Of a stretch of 64,000 nt of DNA, positions 6,736-58,712 are shown piece after piece. The stretch comes from Trueperaceae bacterium. GTDB taxonomy: Bacteria > Deinococcota > Deinococci > Deinococcales > Trueperaceae. A program made the translations under genes and the position numbers. The stretch covers positions 288,001 to 352,000 of the forward strand of contig OZ243927.1 in the NCBI GenBank assembly GCA_965213925.1, given 5' to 3'. Each line of letters starts with the position of its first letter. The first letter of the stretch is position 1. The notes under the pieces are model-generated. The model did no database searches and was not told the DNA's origin. It saw only the letters and a list, made by a program, of their open reading frames with translations.

Positions 6736-7500
6736 CTACTCGAGCGAGCAGCCCGTCTCGGACGGGGCAGGGGTCACTTGGTCGCCGGGGATTTGTTGCA
6801 GGGGCTCGAGGGTACGGATGGGCAGGTCTTCACTCACCGCCGTCACGCCCCAAATAGCGGGCAAGATGGCTTGGTGGTCCTCGGGTCGGAAGGTGCGCGT
6901 GCCTGCCGGGGTCTCGAGCGTCAGCCCCGAGAGCGCCTCTATGACTGCGTCCGGCTTGGTCGAGCCCGCTTGCTCAATGGCTGCTTTGTAGGCGTAGAGC
7001 GTGCTGTACGCGCCCTCCGCGTTGTAGGAGGGCAGCGCGTCGTAGCGCTCTTGGTAGGCGTTCACGAAGTCCTGGTTGACCTGCGCGTCGTTGCCGTCAA
7101 ACCAGTAGCGCGTCCCGACCCAGATGCCCTCGGGCATCCGATCTTCTAGCGCGTAGAGCACCTCGGTCGCGCCGCCCAAGGTCATCAAGATAAAGCCCAG
7201 GTTGCTCGCCTGCCGCACGAAGTTGATGAGGTCGCCGCCCCAGAGCGAGATGAGCACCCCCTCGGGCTGCGCGTCGATGATGCGGGTGATGAAAGGCGCG
7301 TAGTCCTGTGCGCCGAAAGGCGGAAAGGCGGTCTCGCTCATGAACTCCGCGCCGCTGATCTCCTCTACGGCGTACTGCCGAAAGAAGTCCCACGACTGCC
7401 GCCCGAAGGCGTAGTCAGGACCGATGGTGGTCCAGCGCTCGGCGTCTAGGTTCTCCGCCGCGACCATCGCCGCCGCCCGGATGTTCTGGTTGATGTTTAC
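6736..7500 (-). pseudogene. Branched-chain amino acid ABC substrate-binding protein, 5'-truncated
   Basis: PDYAFG, QDYAPFIT, TPAG..TFRPEDHQ motifs; in-frame TAA just upstream of VNINQNIR, so the N-terminal part and signal peptide are missing. Confidence 0.75.
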
Positions 7501-7629
7501 TTATCTCGCACTTAGGACAACGTCTATCCAGTAAACTCGCTTGGGAGTAGGTTTGGTCTTCCACAACCCATTCTTACCCCTCCTTTTTGCTCAACCGACT
7601 TTTCGTACTACCTCCTAGGACGCTTAAAG

Positions 7630-7658
7630 TTGACAGCGATTTTCAAATGGGTTTTAAT
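7630..7658 (+). promoter_or_regulatory. Sigma70-type promoter of speD-speE
   Basis: TTGACA (7630-7635), 17 bp spacer, TTTAAT (7653-7658). Confidence 0.6.
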
Positions 7659-7735
7659 GAGGGTTCGCGTTTGATACTTACTCGAAAACGCAGCTGAACC
7701 GCGGCGTAGTCCGCGCTAAACCGAATTGAATAAAC

Positions 7736-7835
7736 GCAGCTATCATCCCCGAACGTGCGAGCCAACGTGTATTTACTCCCTTCAGAGCGTTTTTAGTCAG
7801 CTCCGAGCGCACGTGAGACAGATTTTGATACCTGC
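7736..7835. repeat. MITE family A copy (TIR GCAGGTATCATC-like)
   Basis: GCAGCTATCATC...CAGCTCCGAGCG..GAGACAGATTTTGATACCTGC; related copies at about 8250-8407, 17911-17985, 20115-20187, 36486-36605, 37778-37853, 47126-47240 and 62201-62276. Confidence 0.7.
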
Positions 7836-7850
7836 TGTGAAGGCGGTGAA

Positions 7851-8243
7851 ATGCACGCATTAGGTAGACAGATTTTAGTCGAATTTTACGGTTGTGACGA
7901 AGCGGTCCTAACCGATACGGCGAACCTTAGAGAGGTCATGTTGGAGGGCACCAGACGCTCGGGCGCAACGATCATCTCCAACGAGTTTCACACCTTCAGC
8001 CCGCACGGGGTCTCCGGCGTCATCGTCATCGCCGAGTCGCACGTGACGGTTCATACCTGGCCCGAGTTCGGCTACGCGGCGATTGACATCTTTACTTGCG
8101 GTGAAACGATTGACCCCTGGGCGGTCATGCACTACTTAGAGGCGGAGTTTGGGGCGAGTAGCATCTCGAGCATGGAACTCAAGCGCGGCTTGTTCCCCGA
8201 GAAGGTGGCGCATAAGGTCGAGGAAGCCGTCGCGAGTGATTAG
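7851..8243 (+). CDS. speD: S-adenosylmethionine decarboxylase proenzyme
   Basis: GVSGVIVIAESHVTVHTWPE..YAAIDIFTCG, with the ESH self-cleavage site. Confidence 0.95.
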   Translation: MHALGRQILVEFYGCDEAVLTDTANLREVMLEGTRRSGATIISNEFHTFSPHGVSGVIVIAESHVTVHTWPEFGYAAIDIFTCGETIDPWAVMHYLEAEFGASSISSMELKRGLFPEKVAHKVEEAVASD

Positions 8244-8249
8244 TCGGAT

Positions 8250-8407
8250 AGCAGGTTCAGAATATACTAGGATAGAGCGGCGCAGATTTCACAGCTTTGC
8301 TGTAACGGAACTTCATCTCCGCAATGTGCGTGCTAAATCATTGCGTACTACGCTTAGAGCATCCGTGACCAGCTCCGAGCGTCAGCGAGACAGACTTTGA
8401 TACCTGC
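8250..8407. repeat. MITE family A copy between speD and speE
   Basis: GCAGGT...TGACCAGCTCCGAGCG...TTTGATACCTGC; the internal 32 bp (8286-8317) is identical to 47126-47157. Confidence 0.7.
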
Positions 8408-9269
8408 AGAAACCCTCTTTAACTTCCGCTACAGTGAATACTGGATGGGGCGCAGCGGCCTCACCTTCAACGTTGAAAAAGTTTTGTTTCAAGAAACGAG
8501 CGACTTTCAAGAGGTCGCGGTATTGCAAACGGACGCCTTCGGCAACCTCTTGACCTTGGACGGCGTCGTGATGTTCACCCAATACGACGAGTTCGTCTAC
8601 CACGAGATGATGGCGCATCCGGCGTTAGCGCTCTTGGGCAACCCTGAGCGCGTGCTGATTATCGGCGGAGGAGACGGCGGGGTGGCGAGAGAGGTGTTGC
8701 GCTACGAGAGCGTTGAGCGCGTAGACCTCGTGGATATCGACGGCATGGTCGTAGAGGTCTCGAAGCGGTTTTTCCCGGAGGTCAGCGTGAGCCTCACCGA
8801 CTCGCGCCTCGATCTGCATATCGCAGACGGCGTCCAGTTCGTCAAAGAGGTCGAGCCGAATACCTATGACCTCATCGTCGTGGACTCGACTGACCCCATC
8901 GGCATCTCGGAGGGGCTTTTCACCAAAGACTTCTACAACGACTGCTTGCGCATCTTGAATGAGCGCGGGCTCATCGTCGTGCAGTCCGAGTCGCCTTTTG
9001 ACGCTAACAACGCGCACGTCGTGAAAGAGGTCAGGCACTTCTTCGACGAGCTGTTTCCGGTTGCGGCAACCTATCTAGCCTTCATCCCTACCTACGCGAT
9101 GGGGATGTGGTCGTTTACGCTGGGTTCTAAAAAACTGCATCCATTAGAAGACTTGGACGCTCGAGCGTTACCCTTCGCGGCTGACCTCCGCTACTACACG
9201 CCCGAAGTCCACCGCGCCGCCTTCGCACTGCCCGCGTTCGTCCAACGTCTAGTTCAAGCGTCCGGTTGA
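8397..9269 (+). CDS. speE: Spermidine synthase (polyamine aminopropyltransferase)
   Basis: LTLDG, DEFVYHEMMAH, IIGGGDGG, DSTDP; start uncertain (TTG 8397 or ATG 8445). Confidence 0.93.
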   Translation: MIPAETLFNFRYSEYWMGRSGLTFNVEKVLFQETSDFQEVAVLQTDAFGNLLTLDGVVMFTQYDEFVYHEMMAHPALALLGNPERVLIIGGGDGGVAREVLRYESVERVDLVDIDGMVVEVSKRFFPEVSVSLTDSRLDLHIADGVQFVKEVEPNTYDLIVVDSTDPIGISEGLFTKDFYNDCLRILNERGLIVVQSESPFDANNAHVVKEVRHFFDELFPVAATYLAFIPTYAMGMWSFTLGSKKLHPLEDLDARALPFAADLRYYTPEVHRAAFALPAFVQRLVQASG

Positions 9270-10411
9270 GGACTCGAGGGCGCATTCGGAATCTCGTTGC
9301 CGACGGATTGCACCTGTAAAGTGCGCACCAGGTCGGTCTTGCTCAAAATGCCGGTCATCTTGCCCGCCTCGTCAACCACAATGAGCCGCCCGAGGTCGTT
9401 CTGGTTGATGCGCTTAAAGGCTTCTAGCGCGTCCTTATCCTCGGTAATCGTGTTGACCTCTTTGGACATGATCTCGCCCACGGTCGCCTCGTCATCCAGA
9501 CCTCTCGCGTGCTGGAGCTTGACCATCCCCACAAGCTGTTCGCCGTCCAAAACCGGATAGCCTAAGTGCTTCTTGAAAAACATCAGCTTGATGAGTTGCG
9601 CCACAGGCATGTCCGGCTCGACGGACACGACCTCTCTGGTCATCAGGTCGCGCACGCGGATACCCGAAAGTAACTCGGAGACCTGCGCGTACTGCGTCTC
9701 GCTCCGCACGGCGCTGTAGATGAAAAAGGCGATGATGACCAGAAAGATGCTGAGGTTAAGCAGCCCGTAGATGCCTAGCAGAATCGCGATGAAGCGGCTC
9801 ACGCTGGCTGAAATCTGCGTGGCGCGAAGGTAGGGCATCCGCAAGGCGAGGAGCGAGCGGAGCACCCGCCCGCCGTCTAAAGGCAGTGCGGGCAAGAGGT
9901 TGAAAATTGCTAAAAATACGTTTTGAAAAGTTAGAAAGGCGAGGACGAACTGAACAGAGTCGGCGCTTCCCGGCGTGATTTGCAGGAGCACCCACGACAC
10001 GCCCGCCACGAGCAGACTCGTGATCGGTCCCGCGATGCCGACAATCGCCTCCGCCCCGCGCTGACGCGGCATCTCGTTAAACTGCACGACGCCGCCCAGA
10101 AACATCAGCGTGATGTCTTTGACCTCCACGCCGTAACGCCGCGCCACCACCGCGTGCCCGAGTTCGTGCACCGCCACGCCCACGAAGAGCCCCAGCGTCG
10201 AGAGGAAGCCGAGCCAGTACGGGGTCGCGCCGCCGCCGATCATGCTGAAGTCGATAGAGGTGTTTAGGAGGCTATTAAAGATGCGCGTGAAGACGCCCAC
10301 CTGGATGCCCACGATCCAGGTGAAGAGCGCCAGGATGAACAAAAAGGAGATGTCCAGGCGAAGGGGTATGCCCAGGAGTTTGAAGGGGAGAGTATAGGAG
10401 TTTTTGAACAT
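9254..10411 (-). CDS. Site-2 protease (M50) with tandem CBS domains
   Basis: HELGH, AGP, NLLPALPLDGG, C-terminal CBS pair. Confidence 0.92.
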   Translation of the reverse strand: MFKNSYTLPFKLLGIPLRLDISFLFILALFTWIVGIQVGVFTRIFNSLLNTSIDFSMIGGGATPYWLGFLSTLGLFVGVAVHELGHAVVARRYGVEVKDITLMFLGGVVQFNEMPRQRGAEAIVGIAGPITSLLVAGVSWVLLQITPGSADSVQFVLAFLTFQNVFLAIFNLLPALPLDGGRVLRSLLALRMPYLRATQISASVSRFIAILLGIYGLLNLSIFLVIIAFFIYSAVRSETQYAQVSELLSGIRVRDLMTREVVSVEPDMPVAQLIKLMFFKKHLGYPVLDGEQLVGMVKLQHARGLDDEATVGEIMSKEVNTITEDKDALEAFKRINQNDLGRLIVVDEAGKMTGILSKTDLVRTLQVQSVGNEIPNAPSSPQPDA

Positions 10412-47818: not shown

Positions 47819-48589
47819 GGTAGTGGTCGCACCCCGAATGCTATAGTAGGGCATGGTTACGAAGACACTCACCTGTTACCACTGCGACAGCGAGAACATC
47901 GTCAAGAACGGCGTAGCGCCGAATGGGAAGCAGAAGTATCGCTGTAAGGACTGTAAAAAGCAGAGCCGTGAGGAGCCGAGTCCGAATGGCTACACTGAGC
48001 CGCGCAAAGAGGAGATTTTAAGCGCGTATGAGGAGCGTTCCAGTTTAAGAGGGCTTGAGCGCACCTTCGGGGTGGCGCGTAGCACGGTGAGTCGCTGGCT
48101 CAAAAAAAACGAAGAAAACTCCCCGCACTGAAAGACACCCTTGTCAGGTTCGATGTTCCTCAGCGCGTGGAGCTAGAGCTTGATGAGTTGCACTCGTTTG
48201 TGCAGAAGAAAGCGAAGAAACGCTGGGTGTGGATCGCTTTATGCAAGCAGACTCGTCAAGTGGTTGCTTGCGTCATAGGTGGGCGCGGCGCAGCCACCTG
48301 TAAGCAACTCTGGAAGGGCATTCCTGAAAACTACAAGCAAGGTCTTCGTTACAGCGACTTCTGGGAAGCCTATCAGAGCGTACTGCCAGACGAACACCAC
48401 CAAGCTGTCAGTAAAGCTACAGGTCTTACTTCCCACGTTGAGCGCTTCAACAACACACTCAGGCAACGTCTTGCTCGCTTCGTGCGCAAGACGTTGGCAT
48501 TCTCTAAGTCCGAGCATATGCATCTTACCTGTCTACACCGCTTCCTCGTCCGTTACAACCTGGAGATCATTCGGGATTGAACCACTACC
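47819..48589 (+). mobile_element. IS1-family insertion sequence, intact, 771 bp
   Basis: TIRs GGTAGTGGTCGCACCCCGAAT / GGTAGTGGTTCAATCCCGAAT; 8-bp TSD CGCCGGAC at 47811-47818 and 48590-48597. Confidence 0.95.
47853..48580 (+). CDS. insAB: IS1 transposase InsAB (programmed -1 frameshift)
   Basis: InsA zinc finger (CYHC..CKDC) and HTH at 47853-48131; A-run slippery site at about 48102-48110; InsB DELHSFV, SDFWEAY, ERFNNTLRQR. Confidence 0.92.
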
Positions 48590-50745: not shown

Positions 50746-50844
50746 AACGTTCCTCCTAAACGGATTAGTAGCCCATCATAACGCCGCAAGGAACCACACA
50801 CGGTGAGGAAATCTCGCACTTTCATGAAGGTTCGGGTGTGAACG

Positions 50845-51153
50845 TCAGGCGTCCGCGTCCACGGTGCGCGGCACCTTGAAGTAGCCCTCTTCCTCTTCCA
50901 CAGCGAGCCTCAGCGCGTCGGCTTGCTCCAGGCTAGGGCGCACGACGTCTTCACGAAACACGTTATGACTCGGCGTCGGGCGGACGAGTTCGTCCACGCC
51001 GTCCGTGTCGAGTTCGCGTATCTGCTCGAAGTAGTCCAGGATTTTGTTCAGGTCTTCTTTAAGGTGCTGCGTCTCTTCCGGGTCAATTTCTAGGCGAGCG
51101 AGCGTTTTGAGGTGCGCCATCTCCTCATCGCTGATGATTGGTTTATTGGACAT
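50845..51153 (-). CDS. gatC: Asp/Glu-tRNA amidotransferase subunit C
   Basis: LARL, IL.YFEQ..ELDT.GV, FRED, GYFKVP. Confidence 0.93.
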   Translation of the reverse strand: MSNKPIISDEEMAHLKTLARLEIDPEETQHLKEDLNKILDYFEQIRELDTDGVDELVRPTPSHNVFREDVVRPSLEQADALRLAVEEEEGYFKVPRTVDADA

Positions 51154-51297
51154 GAAGTGAGTGTATCACGTGTTATCTCAGACTCTGCAGTCGGTTGGGT
51201 GGACGAGAGTACAGAATGAAAAGCGTACGCTTTTCATTCTGTACTAGCAATCTCCTCGAGGACGTTTGCCCTCACCCACTTGGGGTAGACTATCCCT

Positions 51298-51708
51298 ATG
51301 AAACGTGGTCTCAGTCTTCTAGCCATCCTTTTTCTACTCCTCGGTTGCAACGCCCCGTCGGAGGGGAGTGCACAAGCTCAAGAGGCGCAGGGCGAGTCGG
51401 GGAGCAGCCCCACCGCCGTGCGCACCGAGTTAGAGGGCGAGCCTGCGCTGGGCGCGGCTAAGGTGCTCGTCTATGTCCTCAAAGACAACCAAGGTGTCTC
51501 GGGCGCGACCGTTGAAGTGACGGGCGATATGACCCACGCGGGCATGGCTCCGGTCACAGCTACCGCGAAAGAGGTCGGCGCGGGGCTCTACGAGACCGAA
51601 GGCTTCGAGTTCACGATGGCGGGCGACTGGCTCCTCACCTCTGAGGTGGTGTACCCTGACGGGACCGAAGTAGAAGATACCACAGCGCTTAGCGTACCTG
51701 GACGGTAA
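51298..51708 (+). CDS. YtkA/FixH-like lipoprotein (putative copper chaperone)
   Basis: Lipobox LLGC; GA.V.V.GDMTHAGM.P...G.Y....F.MAGDW. Confidence 0.75.
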   Translation: MKRGLSLLAILFLLLGCNAPSEGSAQAQEAQGESGSSPTAVRTELEGEPALGAAKVLVYVLKDNQGVSGATVEVTGDMTHAGMAPVTATAKEVGAGLYETEGFEFTMAGDWLLTSEVVYPDGTEVEDTTALSVPGR

Positions 51709-51719
51709 TTTGACCTGAT

Positions 51720-52043
51720 ATGAGACGCCCTTCGCAAGACACCCTGAGAACTGCCTGCCGCGCAGGTAGGGGGGCGTTCTTTGCGTTTCTGCTGACCTCG
51801 GCGCTCTTTGCCTCGCCCTTCTTGGCGGCGCAGCAGGATTTCGGGCATACGCACCCCGAGGGCACACCACCGCACGTCCACGGCATCTCGAGCGTTTTAG
51901 GTCACACCTTTTTGACGCCTGTTGTTATCTCGGTAGCGGCCAGCTTCGCAATTGTCTTTGTTTTATCCTTAACGTGTCCCTCTTTAGTTCTAGCACCTTT
52001 TAGGAACCCCGCGCACGGAGTCCGTGCGCCACCTTTTGCTTAG
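51720..52043 (+). CDS. Small exported His-rich protein ending in the RAPP arrest motif (putative regulatory uORF)
   Basis: Hydrophobic N-region, HTH....PHVH, second hydrophobic stretch, C-terminal HGVRAPPFA*. Confidence 0.65.
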   Translation: MRRPSQDTLRTACRAGRGAFFAFLLTSALFASPFLAAQQDFGHTHPEGTPPHVHGISSVLGHTFLTPVVISVAASFAIVFVLSLTCPSLVLAPFRNPAHGVRAPPFA

Positions 52044-52218
52044 TGTTTAACAAAGCTTCACACCTCTCTAGGTTTCTACTTGTGGGTTGCTCGAGTCTCT
52101 CGAGCGTATCTGTACGTACTGAGTTGACAAGGTGCAAAGCTAGTTCGAGCTTTTCTAAGCTCGGCAATTCTTAAAACAATCTCCCCTTGAAATTTCTAAG
52201 CAAAAGGAGACCTATCCG

Positions 52219-52725
52219 ATGAGATTTTCTTTTCTCGCGCTGACTCTGTGCGGCGCAGTATTTGGGGTGGTGTCGGCGCACGCATACCTCGAGACCTCAG
52301 ACCCCGCGACGGGGGCAACCTTACAAGTGGCACCAGAGCAAATCACCCTGAATTTTAGCGAGCCCTTGGAGCTGCGCTTTAGCACCTTCAGAATTGCCCC
52401 TTTAGAGACGGACGCAACCGACCCGCGTGAGGTCCAAGTTGCCGCGCAGGACCTTGTAGCGGAGGTTTTAGGGCAGGGCGATGACCGCCACGGTGACGCT
52501 GGCGATGAAGAGCACAGTGATGAGCATGGCGACGAATCCGGTGAGACGAGTGTCGAGGTGCTGACGAGCGAGCGGGCGACCCGAGAGGTTGCGCTCGGGC
52601 TAGGCGACCTAGAGCCGGGAACCTACGTCGTCATGTGGCGACTCCTCTCTACCGACACCCACACTTCGGACGACTACATCACGTTCACTATCTCATCCGA
52701 CGCGAGCACCTCCGCAGGGAATTAG
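52219..52725 (+). CDS. copC: Copper-binding periplasmic protein CopC with a His/acidic insertion
   Basis: Signal peptide then HAYL..SDP..GA, L.FSEP, L.PGTY.V.WR.LS.D.H. Confidence 0.88.
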   Translation: MRFSFLALTLCGAVFGVVSAHAYLETSDPATGATLQVAPEQITLNFSEPLELRFSTFRIAPLETDATDPREVQVAAQDLVAEVLGQGDDRHGDAGDEEHSDEHGDESGETSVEVLTSERATREVALGLGDLEPGTYVVMWRLLSTDTHTSDDYITFTISSDASTSAGN

Positions 52726-53657
52726 TGCTCGCGCTCGTCAAAGCGAGCTTGCTCTTGGGCGCAGTGCTGCTGATTGGCGCGGGCGTCTTCGGGCGTTTCG
52801 TCGCGCCGGAACTGCGCGACGAGGTGCGAACGCCGCTACGTTGGGGCGTTCTGACAGGCGCAGTCGTGCTGCTGATTAGCAGTGTGGTTGACGTGACGCA
52901 GACCGTGAATAACGCGCTTGGCAGGTACGACGCTGCATTTTTGCTCGAGTACATGCGCTTCACGCGCCACGGCAACGCGGTGCTCGTGCGGCTCGTGCTT
53001 GTCGTCGTCGTCGCGTTTCTCACGCTTAGGTGGACAGCCCCAGACACCGCACCCTCTTTCGCGCGGCGCACGAATCACGCGCTCTACCTCTTCTCGAGCC
53101 TCGGTTTACTCTCTACCTTTAGCTGGACGAGTCACGCGGCGACGATGGGCGGCACGCCCCCTTTGCTCGCGGACCTCGCGCACTTCGCGGCGGCGAGTGC
53201 GTGGTCCGGCGCGGTGCTCTACTTGGCGCTCGCCCCCGTGTGGGAAGAGGGACGGCGGGCGAAGTTGAACCGGGCACTCGCCAGAGTGTCCGCTCTCGGC
53301 TCCGCGTGCGTCACGCTCCTCTTTATTACAGGAGGCTACACCTCTCTAATGCATCTGCAAAACCCCGAACGCTTCGCCGCCTCACCTTACGGTCAGGCGC
53401 TCATCTATAAACTGCTGCTCGTCGCCATTATCGTCGGGCTCGCGGCGTACAACCGCTTGTGGCTCTTGCCTGCCTCACTCAAAGGTAAGCTCACGCGGCG
53501 CTTTAGGAGGGTAATGAGGCTCGAGGCTCTAACCCTCGTCGCCGTTTTTATCACCACGGGCGTCCTCACCACGAGCGCTATGCCGCACGAGCCCGGCATC
53601 CAGCCCACCGCACTAGAAAACCTCACGGCTTTGCTGCGCTACTTAGGCGCACGTTAA
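52725..53657 (+). CDS. copD: Copper uptake membrane protein CopD
   Basis: SHA, D..H..AAS.W.G, TG, YG..L..KL, A.N; GTG overlaps the copC stop. Confidence 0.88.
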   Translation: MLALVKASLLLGAVLLIGAGVFGRFVAPELRDEVRTPLRWGVLTGAVVLLISSVVDVTQTVNNALGRYDAAFLLEYMRFTRHGNAVLVRLVLVVVVAFLTLRWTAPDTAPSFARRTNHALYLFSSLGLLSTFSWTSHAATMGGTPPLLADLAHFAAASAWSGAVLYLALAPVWEEGRRAKLNRALARVSALGSACVTLLFITGGYTSLMHLQNPERFAASPYGQALIYKLLLVAIIVGLAAYNRLWLLPASLKGKLTRRFRRVMRLEALTLVAVFITTGVLTTSAMPHEPGIQPTALENLTALLRYLGAR

Positions 53658-53666
53658 AAGGAGAGA

Positions 53667-54659
53667 ATGATGAAGCTAACGTTGATAACTATTTTTTTAC
53701 TCACGCTCGGCGCGACCTTCGCCCAACAGAGCGTCACTTTAGACTTCGCCGCGACGGTGAACGACCAAGAGGTCAGGTGCGGCGTCATGTATGAGGGCGT
53801 CGGCGCGCAGGGGTCAACCGTCGAGTTTCAAGATATGCGCTTTTACGTTTCAGACGTTCGCCTTATCAATGCGGACGGAGAAGAGGTTGTGTTAGAACTC
53901 GAGCCCAACCAGTGGCAGCACCAAGATGTCGCTCTCCTAGACTTCGAAGACGGCACCGCCCGCTGCGCCGAGTCGGGCAACGAGGCAATGAATAGCACCG
54001 TAACGGGAAGCGTACCCGCGGGAGAGTACACGGGCGTGGTGTTTACGCTCGGCGTCCCCTTCGACCTCAACCACGCGGACGTAGCAACTGCGCCCACGCC
54101 CTTAAACGTCTCCTCGATGTGGTGGAGCTGGCAGGGCGGTTACAAGCACGCTCGCATCGACTTGATGAGCCACAGCGCTATGGCGATGGACATGCAGTCG
54201 AGCACTCAAGAGAGCCATAACGCTGGAGGACACGGTGAAGGCGGCGAACACGCACAAGCTGAAGCCGAACAAGGTGAACATGCAGGTCACGGCGGCGCAG
54301 CCCAAACCGGACTCTGGCCCATCCACATCGGCAGCACGGGCTGCGACTCGAGCGCGAGCGTGATCCCCCCTGCAACACCTTGCGCGAATCCGAACCTAAC
54401 CGAAGTGCGTTTGAAGAATGTCGACTTGGAGAACGACGTCATCGTCGCAGATGTGAGCGGTTTGCTCAGTGGCGTAGACGTAAGCCAGTCCTTAGAGACG
54501 GCCCCTCCAGGCTGCATGTCGGGTCCTGAAGACCCCGACTGCAACGCGCTGTTCACCAACTTGAACCTCGCATCAGACGTGAACACGCAGACCTTCTTCC
54601 GCGTCGCGCCGCAAGGTGCAGCCTCTCATGGCGAAACGCAAGCCGATACGCAATACTGA
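53667..54659 (+). CDS. mbnP: MbnP family copper-binding protein
   Basis: D.RFYVS, WQ...VALLDFE, FTLGVPF.LNH, MWWSWQGGYK (WxW), HIGSTGC, C.NPN, GCMS.P.DPDC. Confidence 0.88.
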   Translation: MMKLTLITIFLLTLGATFAQQSVTLDFAATVNDQEVRCGVMYEGVGAQGSTVEFQDMRFYVSDVRLINADGEEVVLELEPNQWQHQDVALLDFEDGTARCAESGNEAMNSTVTGSVPAGEYTGVVFTLGVPFDLNHADVATAPTPLNVSSMWWSWQGGYKHARIDLMSHSAMAMDMQSSTQESHNAGGHGEGGEHAQAEAEQGEHAGHGGAAQTGLWPIHIGSTGCDSSASVIPPATPCANPNLTEVRLKNVDLENDVIVADVSGLLSGVDVSQSLETAPPGCMSGPEDPDCNALFTNLNLASDVNTQTFFRVAPQGAASHGETQADTQY

Positions 54660-54662
54660 GGC

Positions 54663-55794
54663 GTGAAACATACGCTCTTCATCACCGGATTTTTGTCGCT
54701 CGTCCTCCTCCTTTTGGGGGCGGGCACGCCCGGTTACGTCTGGACCTTGCCGCAAGGGTTCCCCAAGCCGCTCGTGCCCGAAAACAACCCGATGACCGAC
54801 GCGAAAGTCGAACTCGGGCGGCACCTCTTCTACGACACGCAGCTCTCGGGCAACGGCTCGCAGTCGTGCGCCACGTGTCATCAGCAGGCGCAGGCATTCA
54901 GCGACGGCATGAACACCTCGGTGGGCTCGACGGGTGAACCTCATCCGCGCAACTCGCAGTCTCTGACCAACGTTGCCTATAACGCCACCTTGACTTGGGG
55001 CAATCCGGTCTTAGAGGAGTTGGAGCAGCAAATCCTCATCCCCATGTTCGGCGAATTCCCGGTTGAACTCGGCATGATGAATAAGGAGGAAGAGGTCTAT
55101 GCCCGCTTCGAAGAGGACGCGCTTTACAAAAACCTCTTCGCCGCTGCTTATCCGGGTGAAGAGAACCCCGTCAACACGAGAAACATCGCCGACGCGCTCG
55201 CCTCCTTTACCCGCACGCTGATCTCGGGCGGCTCGCGCTACGACGAGTTCGTCTACGGCGGCAACAGAGACGCCCTCACCACCTCCGAGCGGCTCGGCAT
55301 GGACCTCTTCTTTAGTGAAAGGACCGAGTGCCACCACTGTCACGGCGGCTTCAACTTCACGCACTCGGTCAAGCATCAAAACAACGCGCAGTTCGTGGAG
55401 AAGTCCTTTCATAACACCGGGCTCTACAACGTGGACGGTCAAGGCGCGTACCCGACGGGCAATACGGGCGTGTTCGAGGTTACGGGTAAGCGCGCGGACA
55501 TGGGCAAGTTTCGCGCCCCGTCCCTGCGAAACGTCGAACTCACCGCGCCGTACTTCCACGACGGTAGCGCACAGACGTTGGAAGAGGTCGTGCGCTCTTA
55601 CGAGGCGGGCGGGCGGCTTTTAGAGTCCGGCGATTTTGCAGGGGACGGGCGCGCTGAACCCCAACAAGAGCGGCTTCGTGCGCGGCTTTTCGCTGACCGA
55701 CGAGGAGCGGCAGGACTTGGTGAACTTTCTGAAAGCGTTGACGGATGAGGAATTTATCACAGACGAGCGCTTTAGTGACCCCTTTGAGGAATAA
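54663..55794 (+). CDS. mbnH: MbnH family di-heme enzyme (bCcP/MauG superfamily), +1 frameshift at about 55650
   Basis: VP..NPMT..KV.LGR.LFYD, CATCH, RN...[28 protein letters not shown]; the shifted frame gives the expected NPNKS.FV.GF.LT..E..DL..FL..LTD...F.DPF tail, ending at 55794. Confidence 0.9.
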
Positions 55795-55899: not shown

Positions 55900-57039
55900 A
55901 TGGACACACCCCAGTTTGAAGCATCTGAAACTGCGCCGACGATGAGCTACGCGAGAGCCCGCCTCTACCTGGGTATTAGCTGCGTAGGTATGTGGACGAC
56001 GCTCTCGGTATTAGCGCTGCTTTTCGGTCTACCCGAGCGTGTTCTATCCGAGAGTACGCTCTGGTCTCTTGCGGACACCACGCAACTCGTAAGCGTCATC
56101 CTTCTCTACGCTTTCTTACAGGGAGCCTTTGACCTCTTCGGCGGCTTCGTGTTGCCGAAAGAATACGGACGCTACAAACCTAACTTGTCAGGTTTTCTTC
56201 TGCACTGGTTTCGCGGCGCGTTGCTGCACGGTGTGCTCTTGCTCCTCGTTGGTTTAATCCTCCTGGCGAGTGCGCGGCTCGGCGGTATCTGGCTGGCGCT
56301 ACTCGTCTTTTTGCTTTTGAACGTCGGCTTGATTTATGGACAGGTTCTGTTGGCGCGTCTCATCGGCGGGCTCGGCGTTCGACGCGAAAAAGGTTATATA
56401 CTCTTAAATGCACCTTATCCCCACCTCACGGGCGGCGTCGCTGGTTTCAAAGCGGTGGTTCTCGTTCCGCAGAGATGGCGCGACGTATTCGATTCTGAAA
56501 CCTTCGACCTCTTGGTGAAGCGCAAACAGACGCTAGCTGAGAAAGGCTCGAGGCGCTTGGGTCTTTTCGCCGCTCTTCTCTGGAACACGCTCGGGTTCAT
56601 TCTGGTGTACCTCGCAGCAGGCGGCACGGCGAGCGTCGCTGGGCTCATAAGTTTCAGCCTCTGGTCCACACTCTGGGCATTCTTAGGCGTGCTCGTCTTG
56701 CCGACGCTTTCACGGCGGGCGGTGTTTCAGGGGGACGCGCACGCGGTCTCGAGTGGTCAAGAGGTCAGCTTACTTGCCGAAGCTCTCAAGACCCTAGACC
56801 GTGACCAAGACGGTGAATTTAGACGCGGGCAAGCCGTCGAAACGGTCTTTCACCCCATCCCCTCAGCCGCGCGGCGCATTGAGAAGTTGGAGACGAGGGA
56901 CGCACCCCCCAACCTAGCAACCTGGCACGTCGCGAGAACGGCGCTCTACCTCTCGTGGGCGAACCTGAGTTTGCTCTCACGCGCGGTCCACTGCAACATC
57001 GGCAGACCGGAAGTGTGGGTATTTCTGCCGAGTGACTAA
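55900..57039 (+). CDS. Multi-pass membrane protein of unknown function, M48/Ste24-like layout without HExxH
   Basis: About 6 TM segments; SRRAVFQGD..A and FHP.P...RI..L align with M48 C-terminal motifs; ends HCNIGRPEVWVFLPSD. Confidence 0.7.
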   Translation: MDTPQFEASETAPTMSYARARLYLGISCVGMWTTLSVLALLFGLPERVLSESTLWSLADTTQLVSVILLYAFLQGAFDLFGGFVLPKEYGRYKPNLSGFLLHWFRGALLHGVLLLLVGLILLASARLGGIWLALLVFLLLNVGLIYGQVLLARLIGGLGVRREKGYILLNAPYPHLTGGVAGFKAVVLVPQRWRDVFDSETFDLLVKRKQTLAEKGSRRLGLFAALLWNTLGFILVYLAAGGTASVAGLISFSLWSTLWAFLGVLVLPTLSRRAVFQGDAHAVSSGQEVSLLAEALKTLDRDQDGEFRRGQAVETVFHPIPSAARRIEKLETRDAPPNLATWHVARTALYLSWANLSLLSRAVHCNIGRPEVWVFLPSD

Positions 57040-57113
57040 CGGAGTAAAAGCTAGTGCGGGACGTTTGCAACTGGTTCGCCCTGGTGCACAACCCTAAAAT
57101 TAAGGAAGTAACT

Positions 57114-58712
57114 ATGGACGCGACTCAACGCACGCGCAATCAGCGCACCTCACGGGGACACAAACCGATTGTCGAGCAGCCCAGGGGCTTCGACCTCTTT
57201 GCGCTGCCAGGGTTGCGCCGCTTCATCCGCTGGAAATACGCCCGCTTCGTCTTTCAACTCCCGCTGCTGATCCTCGCCGTGTTCGTCATCTGGGACGGCT
57301 TCGCCGGGCGGCAGGTCGCCCCGCGCAACATCGCCACGACGACGGTGTGGCTGCACTATAGGGGGCTCGTCGTGATCGCGCTCGCGCTCATCGGCAACGC
57401 CTTTTGCGCCGCGTGCCCTTTGATGTTGACGCGAGGTGCGACGAAACGCTTGGAGCGCTTTTTGCCGCGCAAGCTGAGCTTCCCTAAACCGCTCAAAAAC
57501 AAATATCTCGTTACCGTCCTCCTCCTGTTCTTCTTTTTCTCCTACGAATACTTCGACCTCTGGGCGAGTCCTTGGCTCACTGCCTGGCTCGTCCTCGCGT
57601 ACTTCGGGGGCGCACTCGCTGTTGACACGCTCTTCCCAGCGGGGACGTTCTGCCGCTACGTGTGCCCCTTGGGAAACTTCAACTTCGCTTACTCGTCGGC
57701 GTCGCCTACGCAGATTACGGCGGTAGACCACGACATCTGTAGGAGCTGTGAGCACAAGCCGTGTTTGCACGGGCGCGACACAGACAGTGTTGAGAGAAAA
57801 GGACTGAGGACTGAGAGGTCAGAAGTTCCTTCTCAGTCCTCAGTCCTGGGTCCTGGGTCCTCTAACGCCGCCTTCATCCCCCTCGCCGACATCGTCCACG
57901 CGAACGGCACCGGACACTTCCCCGGCTGCGAGACGGACCTCTTCGTGCCGACGATGCAATCCAATATGGACTGCACGAACTGCTTCAACTGCGTGCGGGC
58001 ATGCCCTTACGACAATGTCGCCTTAACCGTGCGGCAACCCGGCTGGGAGTGGACGCGCGCACCTTGGAAGACGCGGGGGCGGCTGCCGCTCATGGTGATG
58101 GGCGTGCTCTTAGCCTTCTGGGGACTTTTGAACGCCGTGGCGATGATCGGACCTTACTTCGACCTGTCGCAGTGGGTGGCGAGCACGTTCAACACGCAGA
58201 ACGAAGCCTTGCTCCTCGGAATTTTCTTCCTGACGACGACCCTTCTAGGACTCTTCGTCACGGGCGGTGTCGCCTACCTCGCGGACCTCTTGGGGCAGGG
58301 GAGGGCGAACTTTAGAGACGCCTTTTTGCGCTGGGGGTACGTCAGCGTGGCGCTCGGCTTCGGCTTTTGGGGGGCGCACTACCTCTTTCACTTCATGACG
58401 GGGGCGCTAAGCATCGTGCCCGTGTTTCAGAACTTTTTCGAGGCGAGGGGCTTTCCCGTTGACCCTAACTGGCGGCTCGCGCAAATTATCCCGTCCGACT
58501 GGCTTTTCCCAGTAGGCGCGGCGATCACGCTCTTTTACAGCTTTCTGGCGGTTTACGTGGTGGTGCGTATCGCGCTTAGAGACTTCGGGCGGCGCGGCGT
58601 TTTAGCGATGTGGCCGCCGCTTCTGTTCGTGCTCCTCTTCGCGGCGGTCGCGCTCACGGTTTTGGGGCAGCCGATGGAGATGCGCGGGACGATTCTAGGA
58701 CCGAGTTTTTAG
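57114..58712 (+). CDS. 4Fe-4S-binding polytopic membrane protein (FesM/NosR/CcoG-like)
   Basis: FCAACP, FCRYVCP, C..C....C, DCTNCFNCVRACP; ATG at 57114. Confidence 0.85.
   Translation: MDATQRTRNQRTSRGHKPIVEQPRGFDLFALPGLRRFIRWKYARFVFQLPLLILAVFVIWDGFAGRQVAPRNIATTTVWLHYRGLVVIALALIGNAFCAACPLMLTRGATKRLERFLPRKLSFPKPLKNKYLVTVLLLFFFFSYEYFDLWASPWLTAWLVLAYFGGALAVDTLFPAGTFCRYVCPLGNFNFAYSSASPTQITAVDHDICRSCEHKPCLHGRDTDSVERKGLRTERSEVPSQSSVLGPGSSNAAFIPLADIVHANGTGHFPGCETDLFVPTMQSNMDCTNCFNCVRACPYDNVALTVRQPGWEWTRAPWKTRGRLPLMVMGVLLAFWGLLNAVAMIGPYFDLSQWVASTFNTQNEALLLGIFFLTTTLLGLFVTGGVAYLADLLGQGRANFRDAFLRWGYVSVALGFGFWGAHYLFHFMTGALSIVPVFQNFFEARGFPVDPNWRLAQIIPSDWLFPVGAAITLFYSFLAVYVVVRIALRDFGRRGVLAMWPPLLFVLLFAAVALTVLGQPMEMRGTILGPSF

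Follow-up and report, generated by a model that had tools for sequence, protein, structure and literature searches.

The window considered here, that is, the whole stretch of DNA that was analysed, is 64,000 nt long and covers positions 288,001–352,000 of contig OZ243927.1 (forward strand) from a Trueperaceae bacterium (GenBank assembly GCA_965213925.1). It carries a small open reading frame (ORF; nt 51720–52043) that follows a ytkA-like lipoprotein gene and precedes copC, copD, mbnP and mbnH. The ORF specifies 107 amino acids (aa), from an ATG at nt 51720 to a TAG stop at nt 52041–52043, and is supported by its sequence, by a family of 96 small proteins and by its pattern of codon substitution. 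The ytkA-like gene, this ORF, the spacer behind it and copC to mbnH all lie on the forward (+) strand. A sequence-only reading of this stretch had proposed the ORF as an exported, His-rich candidate for a copper-sensing regulator that works by ribosome arrest, and the elements on which that proposal relied (the 107-aa ORF, a signal-like segment, a His motif, a hydrophobic stretch and RAPP at nt 52023–52034) are all present. The ORF is referred to below as the arrest-peptide ORF.

The N-terminal hydrophobic segment (approximately aa 17–37, nt 51768–51830) is of the export type and is preceded by a positively charged N-terminus; going by the family pattern and an AlphaFold2 model, it may serve as a signal peptide or, alternatively, as an N-in anchor. 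It is followed by a predicted metal-binding motif, HTHPEGTPPHVH (H43-T-H45-PEGTPP-H52-V-H54; His codons within nt 51846–51881), contained in aa 42–54, GHTHPEGTPPHVH, which hold all four His. A linker of 47 residues (nt 51882–52022), called the ruler here as its length but not its sequence is kept in the family, then leads to RAPP (aa 102–105, codons CGT GCG CCA CCT, nt 52023–52034). A second hydrophobic stretch occupies aa 63–93, and RAPP is followed only by Phe, Ala and the stop. When window ORFs of at least 60 aa were screened in all six frames, R[AG]PP was found within the last 14 residues of just one of 253, the arrest-peptide ORF. RAPP can arise by chance in GC-rich frames, as seen in an antisense ORF of the related locus L001 (see below) that ends RAPPARA, so conservation is the real test of the motif. 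Pfam and NCBIfam scans (E ≤ 1) returned nothing but noise for this ORF, and a PDB sequence search with the peptide gave nothing relevant (best E = 0.26).

A family of small proteins

Cluster representatives, 1.84 billion in all, were searched exhaustively with HMMER, and 80 of them matched at E ≤ 1e-3. Seventy-eight of them are proteins of 85–138 aa; the other two, very long repetitive proteins that match the hydrophobic linker only, were set aside. A word-indexed search gave eight relatives, one of which is a hypothetical protein of Truepera radiovictrix. The HMMER matches, further matches and the window protein make up the set of 96 small members used throughout, which includes some redundancy: P0001–P0006 are 65–86% identical to the window protein, and P0097 and P0026 fall into one 90% cluster. 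Relatives that carry names belong to the Trueperaceae, and for a wider range the Atlas provides a lead only, to Methylomirabilota. A tblastn search of plasmids with the arrest peptide gave no matches.

The pattern HxH-6-HxH is present in all 96 members, and all four His are invariant. The consensus at this site reads P-x-L-A-x(3)-D-F-G-H-x-H-P-[ED]-G-T-P-x-H-x-H-x-[LIV]-x-x-[VIL]-L-G. Near the C-terminus, RAPP is found in 80 members and RGPP in nine, three carry RSPP, REPP or RDPP at the same place, and the remaining four lack any motif of this kind, perhaps through truncation. In the 89 members with R[AG]PP the motif mostly lies 1–9 residues from the C-terminal end, chiefly 1–6, and in 31 of them its Arg is directly preceded by Ile or Val. 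The number of residues from the second HxH to this Arg is tightly confined (44 in one member, 45 in 24, 46 in 34 and 47 in 30), while the linker sequence is barely conserved and the mean column identity over the family alignment is 25%. A ruler of fixed length and free sequence fits what a nascent-chain device needs, and the same property matters in CruR, a copper-responsive arrest peptide discussed below. A conserved Cys was sought among the 96 members and none was found; 36 are entirely free of Cys, and a single CGLC in the N-terminal segment of P0083 is incidental.

At the N-terminus the family shows a conserved L/A/F-rich core, together with a Pro ten residues and an Ala seven residues ahead of the first His; the median net charge ahead of the core is +3. 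This pattern points to an N-terminal export signal as a family feature, one in which the cleavage site is not clear. Comparison of the window ORF with its Trueperaceae ortholog in L001 gave a ratio of nonsynonymous to synonymous substitution (dN/dS) of 0.13 (dS 1.14, 94 codons), which shows that the ORF is translated and under purifying selection. The corresponding value for L002 was set aside, as its alignment is shifted by one residue.

Related loci

A related-locus search based on a 19-row alignment produced 46 pattern matches, two of which were confirmed as loci. Both of these, L001 and L002, are from metagenome-assembled genomes of Trueperaceae (phylum Deinococcota). In all three loci the arrest-peptide ORF is the second gene, separated by 4–11 nt from a ytkA-like gene ahead of it, and copper genes come next. 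No sec, yidC or HupE genes occur in these loci. The copper context is thus kept in 3/3 loci, but the ORF is not a leader upstream ORF (uORF), as had been supposed, since the ytkA-like gene ends just before it in every case.

In L002 (47% identity) the ytkA-like gene is followed by an ORF ending in RAPPLTR and a 133-nt spacer, after which come genes for a His-rich secreted protein without a Pfam match, a NapH-like protein, a YtkA-like protein, CopC, YtkA and CopD. L001 (76% identity) has the ytkA-like gene, the ORF and, about 30 nt downstream, an insertion sequence (IS), a DDE_Tnp_1 (IS4-like) element at nt 7296–8530 of that locus. Beyond the IS lie the remainder of the spacer, copC-copD, more copper genes and mbnP-mbnH. 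The L001 ORF has lost the Phe codon after RAPP and carries TAT in place of the TAG of the window, which extends it by 13 codons. The IS insertion together with the lost stop is a natural uncoupling of sensor and target.

Structure of the spacer RNA

Between the arrest-peptide ORF and copC lies a spacer (nt 52044–52218) that, as described in the earlier reading, is 175 nt long and T-rich (31% T); its G+C content is 43%, compared with 58% for the window. The segment covering the spacer and its flanks (nt 52000–52240) folds with a z-score of −4.28, and none of 200 shuffled sequences folds as well. Hairpin A (nt 52089–52105) and hairpin B (nt 52145–52164) recur in similar forms in L001, and an anti-Shine–Dalgarno (anti-SD) sequence, TCTCC, is located at nt 52180–52184. 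An Rfam scan of nt 51100–52400 (E ≤ 1) found no family, the only match being microRNA noise on an upstream palindrome.

The dominant feature of the predicted fold is a helix (H1) joining the end of the ORF to the ribosome-binding site (RBS) of copC. Its 5′ strand, CCTTTTGCTTAG (nt 52032–52043), is made up of the codons for Pro105, Phe and Ala plus the stop (CCT TTT GCT TAG). The 3′ strand, CTAAGCAAAAGG (nt 52196–52207), is the perfect 12-nt complement of these codons and overlaps the copC SD, which was recognised from its sequence, AAGGAGA (nt 52204–52210; start codon at nt 52219). In the predicted fold of the free mRNA the pairing probability of H1 is 0.97–1.0. The copC RBS ranked second (0.05% tail) when the 15-nt stall segment was scanned over the entire 64 kb in stretches of 30 nt, and no invariant block shared by the L001 spacer and that of the window is longer than TAAGCAAAAGGA. 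An RBS-burying stem of the kind described for SecM and CutF is predicted in the window. The hairpin proposed earlier, between TCTCC and GGAGA (nt 52206–52210) of the copC SD, can indeed form, but as a second-choice fold, the main partner of the SD being the stall site with its 12 bp.

The effect of a stalled ribosome was modelled by masking its approximate footprint (nt 52017–52046), which covers the whole 5′ strand of H1. The predicted cost of opening nt 52202–52224 then drops from 15.5 kcal/mol in the free RNA to 11.1 kcal/mol. In the local fold of L002, the Pro-Pro codons CCUCCC together with CUGA pair with UCAGGGAGG of the next gene (SD GGGAGG; pairing probability P ~1), and with the footprint masked that RBS is predicted to open at a cost of 8.3 instead of 14.6 kcal/mol, which leaves the SD largely free. 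A GC-rich hairpin within the window ORF (nt 52011–52029; GCGCACGG-AGT-CCGTGCGC, a perfect 8 bp over the Arg and Ala codons of RAPP) was considered as a terminator or pause element. It was rejected as probably incidental because it is not called by a terminator scan, is not conserved in L001 and L002, and is lost in the longer fold.

Flanking genes

The ytkA-like lipoprotein gene (nt 51298–51708; Pfam YtkA, E = 1.3e-12) has its stop 11 nt ahead of the arrest-peptide ATG. No clear SD was seen ahead of ATG 51720 on reading the sequence and, with the ytkA stop so close, translation of the arrest peptide is probably coupled to that of the upstream gene. A scan of nt 50800–52400 found no promoter-like site, and so gave no sign of a separate promoter for copC. 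Between gatC (− strand) and the ytkA-like gene is a 36-nt perfect palindrome with 17-nt arms (nt 51209–51244), which is not conserved in L001 and is possibly an operator or a hairpin of the 5′ untranslated region. Another, shorter inverted repeat, GAGGAC-GTTT-G(T/C)CCTC, occurs in both the window and L001, some 35 nt ahead of the ytkA start codon (ATG). Elsewhere in the window, an IS1-type ORF pair specifies an InsA zinc ribbon/helix-turn-helix protein (nt 47853–48131) and DDE_Tnp_IS1 (nt 48167–48580), and probably needs a frameshift to make transposase.

Downstream of the spacer, copC (nt 52219–52725; Pfam CopC, E = 3e-19) is followed by copD (nt 52635–53657; Pfam CopD and NCBIfam copper_CopD), given here as its longest ORF, the true start probably being later. 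Next are mbnP (nt 53667–54659; TIGR04052, E = 3e-82) and mbnH (nt 54663–55794; TIGR04039, E = 8e-139), the latter frameshifted near its 3′ end with the second frame at nt 55636–55794. The alignment of mbnH with its L001 ortholog (87% identity) ends at aa 335 and the last ~45 residues are in the other frame. One extra base is located near nt 55645–55650, and either a pseudogene or an assembly error is possible. CopC at aa 86–108 (nt 52474–52545), for example DDRHGDAGDEEHSDEHGDESGE, and MbnP at about nt 54200–54300 carry insertions rich in His, Asp and Glu. The region after mbnH (nt 55900–58712) encodes two membrane proteins, one polytopic and M48-like and the other of the NapH-like ferredoxin type. 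L002 has a close homolog of the second of these genes at nt 8327–9910, two genes past the arrest-peptide ORF, so the NapH-like gene may be part of the same copper module.

Discussion

We consider it reasonably probable that the ORF encodes a nascent-chain copper sensor of the CruR/CutF type with a translational output of the SecM/CutF type. In such a scheme the arrest peptide would be translated by coupling to the upstream ytkA-like gene, and its N-terminal segment would bring the chain to the Sec translocon. The ribosome would then arrest at RAPP, with Pro104 (codon CCA) occupying the P site and Pro105 (codon CCT) the A site. By generally accepted exit tunnel lengths, the last His, ~50 residues from the peptidyl-transferase centre at this stage, would be just past the tunnel and, in a chain engaged with the translocon, at or through it, near its outer mouth. 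The stalled ribosome would cover nt 52032–52043 and keep H1 open, making initiation at copC easier, and copD, mbnP and mbnH would follow by coupling or operon order. On finishing two codons later the ribosome would leave, H1 would close and the genes would be shut.

Metal binding by the four His would alter the duration of the stall, and the gene context suggests that the metal is copper. The preferred direction is as in CruR, so that copper would compact the emerged loop, pull on the chain and release the arrest, and the acquisition genes would be off in plentiful copper. The usual view of CopC/CopD and MbnP/MbnH is that they serve copper acquisition, and this, together with the CruR precedent, is the reason for favouring the 'genes off' direction, which we do with modest confidence.

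The closest functional comparison is CruR (Bp2923) of Bordetella pertussis. Roy et al. (2022; PMC9426467) defined CruR and DUF2946 proteins by a CXXC motif, RAPP, the spacing between them and an export signal; in CruR there are 45 residues from CXXC to RAPP, and the addition of five impairs copper control. The genes that follow cruR homologs include CopC and MbnPH (PMC9426467). In vitro, CruR arrests at RAPP, and by toeprinting the first Pro codon sits in the P site and the second in the A site (PMC12992588). The window ORF likewise encodes a small peptide with a predicted export signal, in which a putative metal motif keeps a set distance to a RAPP near the C-terminus (45 residues in CruR, 44–47 here). 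A long spacer (175 nt in the window, 133 nt in L002, interrupted by the IS in L001) and then copper genes come after it. It differs in that four His (HxH-6-HxH) replace CXXC, with no conserved Cys, and in that the predicted output is SD masking, the output of CruR being Rho termination. The earlier suggestion of a CruR-like regulator in Deinococcota, with HxH...HxH standing in for CxxC, is in this way supported at the comparative level by the His (96/96), R[AG]PP (89/96) and the spacing (44–47).

As regards descent, a search of the window protein with PF11162 (DUF2946) at E ≤ 10 found no match, only MscS_TM noise. When 86 members were scanned singly, PF11162 was not among the 25 families listed of the 42 found, and each of the remaining, unlisted families matched at most one member. 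A half-DUF2946 cluster in the Atlas (50% PF11162; score 0.92, 132 shared features) is a weak lead only. A few Deinococcus homologs of CruR were noted by Roy et al., whose Table S1 contains one Deinococcus DUF2946 protein and none from Truepera (PMC9426467). The present family has RAPP, the spacing and a predicted export signal; since it shows neither a PF11162 match nor CXXC (or CxxxC), its sequences would not be filed under DUF2946, though it probably works like CruR and CutF.

CutF of Rhodobacter capsulatus (cutFOG) is a nascent exported peptide that senses copper, and its stall at a C-terminal proline motif opens an mRNA stem and frees the next RBS (bioRxiv 2025.02.05.636593; PMC9973294). 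The window ORF resembles it in encoding an exported nascent peptide with a putative C-terminal proline stall site and in the predicted exposure of an RBS by stem opening. CutF, however, has CxxxC and PPP and depends on elongation factor P, where His ligands and RAPP are found here; copper induces its stall and turns on a detoxifying oxidase, while the genes downstream of the window ORF look like copper acquisition genes; and in the window the predicted shielding strand consists of the stall-site codons themselves. CruR and CutF respond to copper in opposite directions (bioRxiv 2025.02.05.636593). Among the 29 clusters of CutF-like proteins described by Ozturk et al. (2023; PMC9973294), SSN 14 and 17 are His-only and lie beside HupE/UreJ. 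Like the window peptide, the proteins of these two clusters are small and carry a signal peptide, metal motifs made of His alone and a PP motif near the C-terminus. They differ in having HupE/UreJ (Ni/Co) beside them instead of CopC/MbnP, and they may belong to the same family. The supplement text of PMC9973294 has no entries for Truepera or Deinococcus.

With SecM, ApdA and ApdP the window peptide shares an R-A-P/G-P core near the C-terminus and an export signal, and stall release is thought to be force-dependent. SecM ends GIRAGP. These peptides, unlike the present one, monitor export, lack the His motif and have sec or yidC downstream. When SecM stalls, the stem covering the secA RBS is opened (bioRxiv 2025.02.05.636593). 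Fujiwara et al. (EMBO J 2025; PMC12992588) reported that small ORFs with RAPP or RGPP are enriched upstream of metal genes in many phyla and showed arrest in vitro for several such peptides. Their supplement counts 133 RAPP against 72 AAPP, and 75 against 9, upstream of CopC (PMC12992588). The window ORF fits this description, being a small secreted or membrane protein that ends in RAPP ahead of Cu-related genes. The Streptomyces lividans examples SLIV_16130 and SLIV_18480 have conserved Cys plus His, or four transmembrane segments with three His and one Met (PMC12992588), whereas the arrangement here is bis-HxH.

Several observations weigh against the proposed sensor and its SD-masking output. 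With the footprint masked, the SD re-pairs with TCTCC (nt 52180–52184; P ~0.95, hairpin of −6.1 kcal/mol) and opening the RBS still costs 11.1 kcal/mol, so the switch predicted for the window is only partial. The stall-site/RBS duplex of L002 is no outlier in a scan of the whole locus (7% tail), and such pairing is absent from L001 (17% tail), where the locus is IS-disrupted and the ORF stop is lost. The comparison at the DNA level spans three family members, namely those of the window, L001 and L002. Unlike most cruR genes, the arrest-peptide ORF is not the first gene of its operon (PMC9426467). Three further points, the AlphaFold2 model, the hydrophobic linkers and the HupE/UreJ neighbours of His-only relatives, are taken up with the alternatives that they would suit.

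The best of these alternatives, though we think it unlikely, keeps the same sensor and gives it the output of CruR: the stall would keep Rho off the final part of the ORF or off the spacer, and its release would lead to termination before copC, perhaps alongside SD masking. This is the mechanism published for CruR (PMC9426467), the spacer is long at 175 nt, and the last third of the ORF (nt 51940–52030) has a mild excess of C over G (17–20 C against 8–14 G per 60 nt). Rut sites, however, are described as unstructured and C-rich (PMC9426467). The spacer, strongly structured and with C and G nearly equal (23% and 20%), does not have the look of a site where Rho would load. A Rho output would also leave the 12-bp helix to the SD unexplained.

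Somewhat less likely again is a stable small membrane protein (N-in, with two helices and a periplasmic four-His loop) acting as a copper-binding accessory of YtkA, CopC and CopD, in which RAPP would be a cytoplasmic tail or a pause without regulatory output. AlphaFold2 models the 107-aa peptide as a hairpin of two helices (aa 6–36 and 65–85; mean pLDDT 86.4, above 90 for helix 6–36), a hydrophobic 15-residue window is present in 62 of 89 linkers, and the gene lies inside the operon, 11 nt after ytkA. Yet 27 of the 89 members, including that of T. radiovictrix, lack a second hydrophobic segment and still keep RAPP and a ruler fixed in length within three residues. Nor would such a protein account for R[AG]PP being retained in 89 of 96 members, always near the end, or for a stall site complementary to the SD of the next gene; and CruR and CutF are themselves reported to be undetectable or short-lived (PMC9426467, PMC9973294). 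That the peptide senses nickel, cobalt or zinc, like the His-only CutF-like clusters 14 and 17 beside HupE/UreJ, which are implicated in Ni/Co (PMC9973294), or monitors Sec-dependent export with no metal, as most known RAPP peptides monitor Sec or YidC (PMC10951233, PMC10987492, PMC7897499), is very improbable given CopC, CopD, MbnP, MbnH and YtkA-like copper genes across the three loci and no sec, yidC or HupE.

Members of the general class have been published before, among them RAPP uORFs ahead of CopC as well as the His-only clusters of CutF-like proteins, and with Deinococcus DUF2946 proteins also published the degree of novelty is lower than the sequence-only reading had assumed. A literature search for the bis-HxH family with its ruler, or for a stall-site/SD helix, found no description, and the family may already sit in published lists. 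What appears to be new is the use of four His ligands outside PF11162, the internal position in the operon and the predicted role of the stall site as anti-SD. A bolder proposal, which we put forward tentatively and regard as doubtful, is that the family arose separately from DUF2946 and came to the same design (export signal, metal site, ~46-residue ruler and RAPP), with a four-His loop, only just past the translocon at the moment of the stall, reading periplasmic copper and the codons from Pro-Pro to the stop serving as anti-SD of a copper-uptake operon.

Copper-responsive arrest peptides are a recent finding with workings that are unsettled, and the two cases studied, CruR and CutF, differ in direction and output. 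A second family with the same distance from metal site to RAPP, in which thiols are swapped for four imidazoles, offers a natural way to ask what it is that the ruler measures, and whether the disulfide chemistry put forward for CutF is required. The predicted 12-bp pairing of the stall site with the copC RBS gives a clear prediction open to mutation. The family also offers an annotation for 'hypothetical proteins' of ~100 residues beside CopC, CopD, MbnP and MbnH that current Pfam and NCBIfam models leave unnamed. If the convergent origin were true, the spacing of ~46 residues would count as a physical constant of arrest release gated by metal and not as a family trait, and the use of the stall site as anti-SD would be a general, compact wiring of RAPP peptides to their targets.

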